Origin: Stappia sp.
GTDB lineage: Bacteria; Pseudomonadota; Alphaproteobacteria; Rhizobiales; Stappiaceae
Assembly (NCBI RefSeq): GCF_040110915.1
Contig: NZ_CP157793.1
Coordinates: 258,939 to 322,938 of the forward strand
Length of the DNA stretch: 64,000 nt
Direction: 5' to 3'
Shown in pieces: positions 60,657-60,843 of the stretch. A program made the translations under genes and the position numbers. Within the stretch, counting starts at the first letter, position 1; each line of letters opens with the position of its first letter. The notes beneath the pieces were generated by a model that saw nothing but the letters and a program-made list of their open reading frames with translations, searched no databases and was not told where the DNA came from.

Positions 60657-60684
60657 GAAAGGGCGGCCAGCAGGCCGCCCTTTC
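60657..60684. terminator. Intrinsic terminator downstream of groEL
   Basis: GAAAGGGCGGCC-AGCA-GGCCGCCCTTTC. Confidence 0.8.
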
Positions 60685-60693
60685 CGCAAATGT

Positions 60694-60843
60694 CGGTTCC
60701 GATGGACTTCTCAGAAGTCCCTGCCGCCCTCGAAACCGGCTGTTGCCGGTTTCGACCTGGCATAGCTGAAACCGGCTGTTGCCGGTTTCAGCATCTGGAG
60801 CAATGGGCGGTTCCGATGGACTTCTTAGAAGTCCATGCCGCCC
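60694..60843. repeat. Composite repeat: 36-bp direct repeats of the groEL 3' end flanking two palindromic 22-bp cores
   Basis: A1 60694-60729 and A2 60808-60843 (34/36 identical). B core GAAACCGGCTGTTGCCGGTTTC at 60732-60753 and 60768-60789. Confidence 0.95.

Follow-up and report, generated by a model that had tools for sequence, protein, structure and literature searches.

Stem-loops formed by repetitive extragenic palindromic (REP) sequences have an established role in enterobacteria in protecting the end of a reading frame from decay; their stabilizing effect on mRNA was reportedly described by Higgins and Newbury in 1987, and REPs that lie no more than 15 nt from a stop codon are said to have had effects in the work of Liang, Rudd and Deutscher in 2015. 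Few bacterial operons are expressed as highly or controlled as tightly as the groESL chaperonin operon. To our knowledge, every control described for alphaproteobacterial groESL, namely CIRCE/HrcA (CIRCE, controlling inverted repeat of chaperone expression), sigma-32 and a cleavage that separates groES from groEL, operates either at the 5' end or within the transcript. Here we analyze the 3' end of groEL in a 64,000-nt stretch of a Stappia sp. genome (contig NZ_CP157793.1; hereafter the window), in which the region following the gene is one copy of an approximately 78-nt, groEL-specific tandem-repeat module placed between the stop codon and an intrinsic terminator, a description in which we have high confidence.

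Two further lines of work are relevant to a structured repeat in this position. Replication template switching can make and repair hairpins without selection (PMC8794818). In the case of Brucella abortus, 129 small RNA (sRNA) candidates were predicted with SIPHT by Dong et al. in 2014, and seven of the 20 tested were verified by reverse transcription-PCR, as recounted in the review PMC9751625, which names BASRCII26 among the candidates that lowered a reporter, and does not state explicitly whether it belongs to the seven.

Results

The groEL 3' region of the window

The groEL coding sequence (60825-62462, minus strand), recognized as an open reading frame (ORF) and from its translation, encodes 545 aa with the C-terminus ...GGMGGMDF and has its TAA stop codon at 60827-60825. 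In the groEL direction the region reads ...GGC GGC ATG GAC TTC TAA, then GAAGTCCATCGGAACCG CCCATTGC TCCAGAT, a first hairpin GCTGAAACCGGC-AACA-GCCGGTTTCAGC, the stretch TATGCCAGG, a second hairpin TCGAAACCGGC-AACA-GCCGGTTTCGA, then G GGCGGCAGGGACTTC TGA, GAAGTCCATCGGAACCG ACATTTGC, and finally GGAAAGGGCGGCC-TGCT-GGCCGCCCTTTC TCGTTTTG. Repeat finding returned a 44-nt direct repeat at 60686-60729 and 60800-60843 that is 89% identical at a spacing of 114 nt, with 70 nt between the copies, and whose inner 35 nt carry two differences (ATG to AGG and TAA to TGA). The palindrome ATGGACTTCT-A-AGAAGTCCAT (10-1-10) lies over the groEL stop codon at 60816-60836, and the palindrome GGACTTCT-N-AGAAGTCC lies over the second stop at 60704-60720. 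Two identical 22-nt hairpin cores, GAAACCGGC-TGTT-GCCGGTTTC, occupy 60732-60753 and 60768-60789 with a period of 36 nt, and lengthen to stems of 11 bp (TC...GA) and 12 bp (GCT...AGC), respectively, with all pairs formed in both. A preliminary description of the window had noted the repeated groEL end, the stop-centered palindromes, the two hairpins with different but fully paired outer bases and the terminator, and we recovered every one of these, on the minus strand.

These sequences resolve into discrete parts, all on the minus strand. The stop-codon hairpin SL1 (60803-60845; AUGGGCG-GC-AUGGACUUC, a UAA loop, then GAAGUCCAU-CGGAAC-CGCCCAU) forms in the minimum free energy fold and in the RNAalifold consensus of a 19-sequence seed alignment; the last 21 nt of groEL are its 5' arm, and its 3' arm, consisting of X' plus CGCCCA (60803-60824), is non-coding. 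Hairpin H follows in two copies: copy 1 (60765-60792; GCUGAAACCGGC-AACA-GCCGGUUUCAGC, 12 bp), found as an inverted repeat and in the fold, and copy 2 (60730-60755; UCGAAACCGGC-AACA-GCCGGUUUCGA, 11 bp), found as a repeat, which is a lineage-specific 36-bp duplication with the same 22-nt core as copy 1 and with its outer two pairs swapped yet still paired. Repeat finding then identified X2, a direct copy of the groEL terminus (60711-60729; GGGCGGCAGGGACUUC plus UGA), and X'2, an inverted copy (60694-60710; GAAGUCCAUCGGAACCG) that pairs with X2 in the fold to form SL3, a second hairpin of the stop-codon type. The groESL 3' untranslated region (UTR) ends at an intrinsic-terminator-like hairpin (60647-60685; GGAAAGGGCGGCC-UGCU-GGCCGCCCUUUC, then UCGUUUUGCC), found as an inverted repeat and in the fold; its 12-4-12 stem-loop spans 60657-60684, with UCUCGUUUUG following on the minus strand, and a simple terminator scan did not call it. 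Because no U-tract directly follows H, the two copies being followed by AGCUAUG or GAGGGCG, neither H copy is an intrinsic terminator and the real terminator is the downstream one.

The region is not an assembly artifact of the window, since two independent Logan assemblies (loci L002 and L003; retrieved loci are numbered with the prefix L) reproduce it at 100% identity. In 100 shuffled windows, none matched the 22-mer or the 26-mer at three or fewer mismatches.

A family of groEL-specific units

The same architecture recurs after groEL in other genomes, and defines a unit of 72-80 nt (78 in Stappiaceae; 77-78 within one array) that is composed of four parts. The first, X', repeats the last codons in inverted orientation and pairs with the gene end, giving a hairpin that holds the stop codon in its loop and is extended by an outer helix UGGGCG:CGCCCA. 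The second is a short spacer containing GCCCA, and the third is H, a 10-12-bp hairpin whose sequence varies between lineages and whose pairing is kept. The fourth part, X2, repeats GGCGGCATGGACTTC in direct orientation together with a stop codon, and another X' often follows it. H is located 11-14 nt after GCCCA and 1-4 nt before the copy of GGCGGCATGGACTTC and its stop, a placement that the window shares. The number of units after groEL ranges from zero to six and differs even between close strains; units always lie upstream of a terminator-like hairpin with a T-run, and the window conforms to this order.

The longest array is that of Stappia sp. ES.058, in which six head-to-tail units of 77-78 nt follow groEL and the terminator follows the array. 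Its units consist of GGCGGCATGGACTTC-(T/C)AA-(G/C)AAGTCC, a GCCCATC spacer and the hairpin TGAAACCGCC-AACT-GGCGGTTTCA, and three of the units form a 233-bp block that is present twice, at 99% identity. The corresponding window hairpin, TGAAACCGGC-AACA-GCCGGTTTCA, differs from that of ES.058 by a compensated change of a G-C pair to a C-G pair. Since 114 is the sum of 78 and 36, the window holds one unit together with the 36-bp hairpin duplication, and it is the only family member with two hairpins in a unit. Stappia albiluteola and Hongsoonwoonella zoysiae carry one unit each, with the AACA loop of the window, and Stappia taiwanensis has no unit, with the stop-codon palindrome alone. We infer that the unit is ancestral in Stappiaceae and that the window lineage subsequently duplicated the 36 bp containing H. 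A 115-aa ORF was called wholly inside the ES.058 array (L129:1728-2075) and has no Pfam hit; because the higher-order period of 233 nt is out of frame, this ORF is almost certainly spurious, and coding potential of the array was rejected.

Beyond the Stappiaceae, the plasmid-borne groL genes of Aminobacter sp. SR38 and Mesorhizobium sp. AR02 (Phyllobacteriaceae) carry the unit, and a truncated groEL on Mesorhizobium huakuii pMHa represents the empty form, X-TAA-TCCAGCC-terminator. Near-identical Mesorhizobium-like loci have one unit (L244) or two (L150). Filled and empty forms are paired in three lineages: the window and L001, L157 and L166/L176, and L150/L244 and the pMHa type. A palindrome scan of metagenomes gave 120 loci, about 86 of them groEL ends, and 16 had one or two full units at periods of 72-80 nt; the loci having been chosen by the palindrome, the resulting frequency of 19% refers to palindrome-bearing groEL ends only. 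The spacer and X2 occur together, with X2 present in 14 of 18 loci that have GCCCA as against 4 of 66 that lack it, and decayed copies occur as well, namely the third copy of L138 and those of L225 and L262. Plasmid BLAST searches with other unit types gave no further full units, and the coding part of the queries gave taxon hints of Mesorhizobium, Aminobacter, Microvirga and Methylobacterium.

A covariance model (R1) built from 19 units separated 21 full members, at 84-132 bits, from everything else, at no more than 60 bits, and the window scored 93.5 bits. X2 was found in all 21 of these members, a conservation that is apparently inflated and in part an effect of ascertainment, as members were recognized partly through X2. 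Altogether 22 members were seen, in Stappiaceae, Phyllobacteriaceae and metagenomes, and the family is groEL-specific and apparently undescribed: a literature search for groEL 3' UTR elements or for the palindrome sequence found no earlier description, and a search of Rfam 15 with the window and eight members returned no family at its gathering score.

Several groEL-related sequences outside the family were also encountered. Locus L192 (about 8796-8895) has a variant groEL end, in which two GGACTTCTAAGAAGTCCATTCC palindromes occur 57 nt apart, the interior is different and there is no GCCCA spacer; it scores 46 bits with R1 and may be an independent or a strongly diverged form of the module. 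Two unrelated metagenome loci, L131 and L191, share the motif CCGATGG(A/C)(G)GAACCATCTTT, which lies beyond the groEL terminator at about 100-130 nt from the stop codon, and this motif has a faint likeness to the GGTTCCGATGGA region of the window. Stray groEL 3' fragments of the form ...GGCATAGACTTTTAA-TCCAGCC-terminator, which is the unit-free form of the Mesorhizobium groEL end, are present in symbiosis-plasmid DNA of M. huakuii, on pMHb directly 3' of nifX (L252:2480-2575) and on pMHa (L251:2380-2620). Finally, a full-length groL lies beside an IS91-family transposase on Salmonella Newport pSN254 (L261; NC_009140.1:128544-131899) and on hundreds of Escherichia, Klebsiella and Salmonella plasmids, many of them enterobacterial IncC-type; the 3' end of this gene is about 78% identical to alphaproteobacterial groEL, with no X' palindrome and no unit.

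Structure, covariation and constraint

The 3' region folds far more stably than its shuffles (z = -10.4 for the window and -7.9 for Aminobacter), and each member, folded singly, forms a 10-12-bp hairpin at the same position from about 12 different stem sequences. In an alignment of 21 sequences, which was fitted to the structure and so leans towards it, 97.3% of cells are paired, compared with 28-44% when partners are slid by one to three columns. Nine of the 10 pairs of H have changed on both sides, and the observed values were reached in none of 500 shuffles. The single-member folds and the RNAalifold consensus of the 19-sequence seed are independent of the model-fitted alignment. The suggestion in the preliminary description that this is a structured 3' UTR module selected for pairing gains support from these data, as the module follows groEL in many Hyphomicrobiales and its hairpins covary strongly.

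SL1 shows the same behavior in both of its helices. The non-coding side of its outer helix, UGGGCG/CGCCCA, finds its partner in 20 of 21 sequences, with 0-9 nt of internal loop in between, and its inner helix, AUGGACUUC/GAAGUCCAU, covaries with the coding sequence, with compensatory changes in L255 and L215. In the case of Hongsoonwoonella, where GroEL ends in MGF, the inner helix is GGGCUUC/GAAGCCC (the GGC/GCC compensation of L255); L215 and Mesorhizobium sp. AR02 have GGAUUUC/GAAAUCC (the GAU/AUC compensation of L215 and L262), and S. albiluteola has a G.U pair (L254). In L215 the first palindrome is GAU/AUC and the second is GAC/GUC, such that X1:X' (X1 being the gene end itself) and X2:X'2 are each compensated separately, which argues that it is the local hairpins that stay paired and not a long-range X':X2 helix. 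Long-range X':X2 pairing was considered as the selected structure and is disfavored, as L215 and L262 compensate their local partners only.

Within the Phyllobacteriaceae-like group, per-site diversity is 0.0 in the SL1 3' arm, 0.042 in X2 and 0.057 in the H stem, and it is 0.31 in the spacer, 0.58 in the sequence after X2 and 0.61 in the H loop. On the groEL-sense strand there are six G.U cells versus three A.C cells, an excess that leans towards a sense-strand RNA and is not decisive.

Strain polymorphism at the site

A lack of variation at this site in relatives would have counted against the preliminary description; the site is instead a copy-number polymorphism. Contigs of three sequencing runs, together with locus L001 of a sister strain, join position 60693 of the window to 60808, exactly 114 bp (60694-60807; one 78-nt unit plus the 36-bp hairpin duplication) being missing from a strain whose flanks are 98.9-99.3% identical to the window over 4.6 kb. 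The short allele reads ...ATGGACTTCTAAGAAGTCCATCGGAACCGACATTTAC-terminator, and the deletion boundary is ambiguous over 18 nt within the repeat identity. As the direct-repeat copies differ at 5 of 44 positions and the two strains at only about 1%, the duplication is older than the strain split, so that the short allele is better read as a deletion between repeats; recombination or slippage from one X/X' direct repeat to the other most likely cost the sister strain its 114 bp. Raw reads of two further runs gave no mixed population, at a coverage of the empty-allele strain of about fivefold or none. There is no sign of an effect on neighboring genes in the sister strain without the unit.

Neighboring genes and a third copy of the X' 12-mer

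Upstream of groEL is groES (62590-62877, minus strand), and downstream are slyX (60313-60525, minus strand) and a major facilitator superfamily (MFS) transporter gene (58927-60219, minus strand), whose product is 75-78% identical to proteins of Stappia spp. Exact-protein look-ups of the window GroEL, GroES and SlyX gave no match, and that of the MFS neighbor gave a match; the corresponding groEL genes of L128 and L129 carry the Pfam label Cpn60. A 639-aa open frame runs antisense to all of groEL (60690-62609, plus strand), which is the usual GC-rich coding-strand artifact and no gene. In the ES.058 locus, a SAM-I/IV riboswitch (RF01725; SAM, S-adenosylmethionine) is found just downstream of the MFS gene (L129:3877-4018) at 56.9 bits, above the gathering score.

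One element had escaped the preliminary description. The 12-mer TCCATCGGAACC of the X' extension is located at 60809-60820 and 60695-60706, and a 12-mer GGTTCCGATGGA (GGUUCCGAUGGA) at 60564-60575 on the minus strand is an exact inverted copy of these 12 nt of X'/X'2 (UCCAUCGGAACC), 38 nt upstream of the slyX start (60525); these three are the only exact copies in the window. The inverted copy is kept in the sister strain (L001), and inspection by eye of the groEL-slyX spacers at loci from four other Stappiaceae species did not show GGTTCCGATGGA. It may or may not be part of the module, and judging by its complementarity it could pair with the groEL 3' UTR, either in a read-through transcript or in trans.

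Discussion

Taken as a whole, the best explanation of the region is a module family that forms a structured tail of the groESL 3' UTR, and we hold this to be somewhat probable. It has to be weighed against accounts in which the repeats arise and persist at the level of DNA. In one of these, the array is a palindromic minisatellite without function: fold-back or template-switch errors at the repetitive, GGM-coding end of groEL gave an inverted and then a direct copy, slippage or unequal exchange varies the copy number, and template switching and gene conversion keep the stems paired and X2 matched without selection on RNA. Much of the sequence fits this account. The array consists of head-to-tail units whose number differs between close strains, as in a variable-number tandem repeat (VNTR) or minisatellite, and units have been lost from strains with no sign of an effect on neighbors. 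The parts stand in the order direct, inverted, direct (X, X', X2), and in L229, L255, L254, L138 and L139 the arms of H often read (G/C)AAGTC..GC / GC..GACTT(C/G), like X' followed by X, a pattern suggesting that H, too, originated as the gene end copied in inverted and in direct orientation. From this arrangement, and from the resemblance of the H arms to GAAGTC.../...GACTTC, template switching probably created the parts, by a mechanism that is documented (PMC8794818). X2 in addition carries lineage-specific, synonymous variants of the gene end that no pairing demands (GGT in L243, GGA in L241, GAC in L215, GGGCTTC in L255), which suggests that the gene end and X2 exchange sequence, presumably by gene conversion or unequal exchange. 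A neutral repeat with flanking direct repeats of 15-35 nt should nevertheless vanish fast, yet two families of Hyphomicrobiales have kept the length of the unit and the order of its parts; homogenization between arms does not by itself predict the 5-10 times lower variability of H stems, compared with H loops and the spacer, in one group, nor is the outer SL1 helix (CGCCCA), with its variable internal loop, expected to be kept. We therefore regard a function-less minisatellite as unlikely, if far from negligible. The preliminary description had also proposed the remnant or passenger of an integrative element that targets groEL, in effect an attL/attR scar with a collapsed interior. The direct repeat does span the gene end with a dyad at a crossover-like position, and the sister strain offers an apparent empty site, but only 70 nt lie between the repeats, and no relative has an island or integrase at this site: the loci of four other Stappiaceae species that have groEL beside slyX carry units only, and in 81 of the 86 groEL ends for which 150 nt or more of downstream sequence was available, a terminator-like hairpin and T-run follows no more than 209 nt after the stop (at a median of 60 nt). 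Integration does not yield tandem arrays of up to six units, the copies are not near-identical, as an insertion as recent as the approximately 1% strain split would require, and the interior is a conserved, covarying hairpin shared across families. This is the most remote of the explanations that we considered.

Hardly less remote is a dispersed mobile repeat, whether a REP or bacterial interspersed mosaic element (BIME) moved by a REP-associated tyrosine transposase (RAYT) or a miniature inverted-repeat transposable element (MITE) with X'/X terminal inverted repeats and a TAA target duplication. Part of the BIME comparison made in the preliminary description stands, as the palindromes do alternate in orientation within the 3' UTR and occur in filled and empty alleles. 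Dispersal, which is the other part, does not: with up to three mismatches allowed, neither the hairpin nor the X-X' palindrome recurs in the 64-kb window, the 123-nt insert at 80% or more likeness matches only the groEL contig in the 58-Mb assembly that holds the source genome, and all R1 hits of 84 bits or more in 633 kb of loci are at groEL ends, the last being weak evidence as the loci were chosen through groEL. Hairpin sequences moreover diverge with the host lineage and are not common to all. The unit can be read as X'...X inverted ends with TAA on both sides, but its right end is identical to the left flank of the target, as a local duplication would equally give. A different kind of alternative is a regulatory RNA, in which a terminating ribosome would toggle X' between X1 and X2 and so couple groEL translation to transcript fate or to slyX read-through, or in which the X2 palindrome and the terminator would be released as a 3' UTR-derived sRNA. 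X' is able to pair with X1 or X2 in nearly all members, and the 12 nt of the window X' are exactly complementary to the site upstream of slyX. The nearest curated entry, RF02603 (BASRCII26), likewise has a palindrome beside a terminator hairpin downstream of groEL in the relative L223, and expression of BASRCII26 lowered a BAB2_0187 target-lacZ reporter in Escherichia coli, according to PMC9751625. The interchangeability of X1 and X2 is not independent evidence, however, as it follows automatically from X2 being a copy; L215 and L262 compensate their local partners while X':X2 is mismatched, arrays of two to six units sit poorly with a two-state switch, inspection by eye of the other Stappiaceae loci did not reveal the slyX complement, and RF02603 as deposited is on the strand opposite groEL and matches the window far below its gathering score (30 versus 218). 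We consider such a regulatory RNA rather improbable. Ribosomal bypass of the T4 gene 60 type, with a stop in a hairpin and matching take-off and landing sites, was considered as well and rejected, because the landing copy again has a stop in most members and units vary in length (72-80 nt, with both 77 and 78 in the same array) and do not preserve the frame.

Returning to a structured groESL 3' UTR tail, the units are probably transcribed with groEL, since they always lie between its stop codon and the terminator. They would work in cis, each stem-loop forming locally and independently of the others, and the resulting stack would block 3'-to-5' exonucleases or define processing sites. The innermost stem-loop would guard the end of the reading frame, such that decay is kept from passing the stop codon and no stop-less messages result; the direct copies would let the array expand and contract, and gene conversion would keep X2 matched to the gene end. 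We advance this stabilizing role tentatively, as a real possibility that falls somewhat short of likely. A bolder version is that the module is a conserved cis-acting RNA device of the Hyphomicrobiales chaperonin operon, in which the terminating ribosome or temperature would switch the pairing of X' by way of the stop-codon hairpin and a decoy copy of the gene end, and would thereby set groESL mRNA decay, 3' processing to a small RNA (as BASRCII26 may hint) or slyX read-through, with the number of units as a strain-variable dial; this is speculative, and we think it improbable.

Several considerations weigh against a selected RNA structure and its proposed role. The filled allele was found in a single sequencing run, a DNA run, and position is what points to its transcription and to any RNA role. 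The components are all palindromic, so that a function on the opposite strand or at the level of DNA fits the covariation equally well, and the G.U/A.C bias of six to three is too small to fix the strand. Compensations that arrive as adjacent doublets (window H1 versus H2; L227 versus L150) resemble the signature of template switching, and the pair counts carry the leaning of the fitted alignment noted above. A model of local hairpins alone does not explain why X2 is also conserved in members that have no X'2 after it, though the ascertainment through X2 accounts for part of this conservation. The unit is also dispensable, given that about 80% of palindrome-bearing groEL ends lack it and that the sister strain has lost it.

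If the proposal is true, a covarying and variably repeated structure that starts in the last codons of groEL and holds the stop codon in its loop would be a new layer of control at the 3' end of this operon, and a candidate RNA family absent from Rfam 15. Even without function, the region offers a clear case from nature of how structured repeats can be built from a gene terminus, and maintained, through fold-back copying, slippage and gene conversion. There is also a practical consequence, as the array yields spurious ORF calls such as the 115-aa ORF of ES.058 and a strain-level length polymorphism beside a widely used phylogenetic marker.

Comparison with known systems

The stem of H is not in itself informative about relatedness. 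A scan of contigs across genomes for GAAACCGGC-N4-GCCGGTTTC gave at least 120 unrelated terminator-like hairpins in random taxa, followed by T-runs, and none among the matches listed had a TGTT/AACA loop. It is a recurrent terminator stem in unrelated bacteria, for example one conserved in Ensifer/Sinorhizobium and another in Halomonas/Vreelandella, and since the stem is generic to terminators, its identity alone is no sign of common origin. Among curated families, RF02603 appears to be the nearest entry, with a match that is only partial: it scored 30.2 bits on the plus strand of the window (E = 9e-6 in a 451-nt search; gathering score 218) and gave no match at E <= 0.1 among eight other family members. 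In the Brucella relative L223 it scored 113 bits, 114-300 nt downstream of the groEL stop. It resembles the module in its location and in its ATGGACTTCC...GGAAGTCC palindrome beside a terminator hairpin, and differs in having an 18-nt palindrome loop (ATGGACTTCC-18 nt-GGAAGTCC), in being placed after a first terminator and in having no GCCCA spacer or H-X2 unit.

Attachment sites of the attL/attR type also duplicate a gene terminus as a direct repeat with dyad symmetry, whereas the module forms tandem arrays of diverged copies, with no integrase or island in any relative. Template-switch hairpins (PMC8794818; PMC5941160) share with it the perfect inverted copies beside their source, multi-base compensation in one step and the direct-inverted-direct order, but they are the product of a mutational mechanism and not a family, and the mechanism alone explains neither the greater conservation of stems than of loops nor the persistence of the module. 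With VNTRs and minisatellites the module shares head-to-tail units of tens of bases, numbers of zero, one, two or six units in different strains, the 233-bp block duplication of ES.058 and concerted evolution within a genome; it differs from them in that the end of an essential gene forms part of its first unit, every unit has conserved, covarying hairpins, and the architecture is kept across families and has not arisen locally. Closest in arrangement are REP/BIME elements, which are likewise imperfect palindromes of alternating orientation in the 3' UTR between stop and terminator, often clustered and variable in number between strains, whose stem-loops can protect upstream mRNA and for which closeness to the stop codon matters. 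REPs are dispersed, however, in tens to hundreds of copies linked to RAYT, whereas the module, in what was searched, is present only after groEL, is derived from the gene's own last codons and is built of head-to-tail composite 78-nt units.

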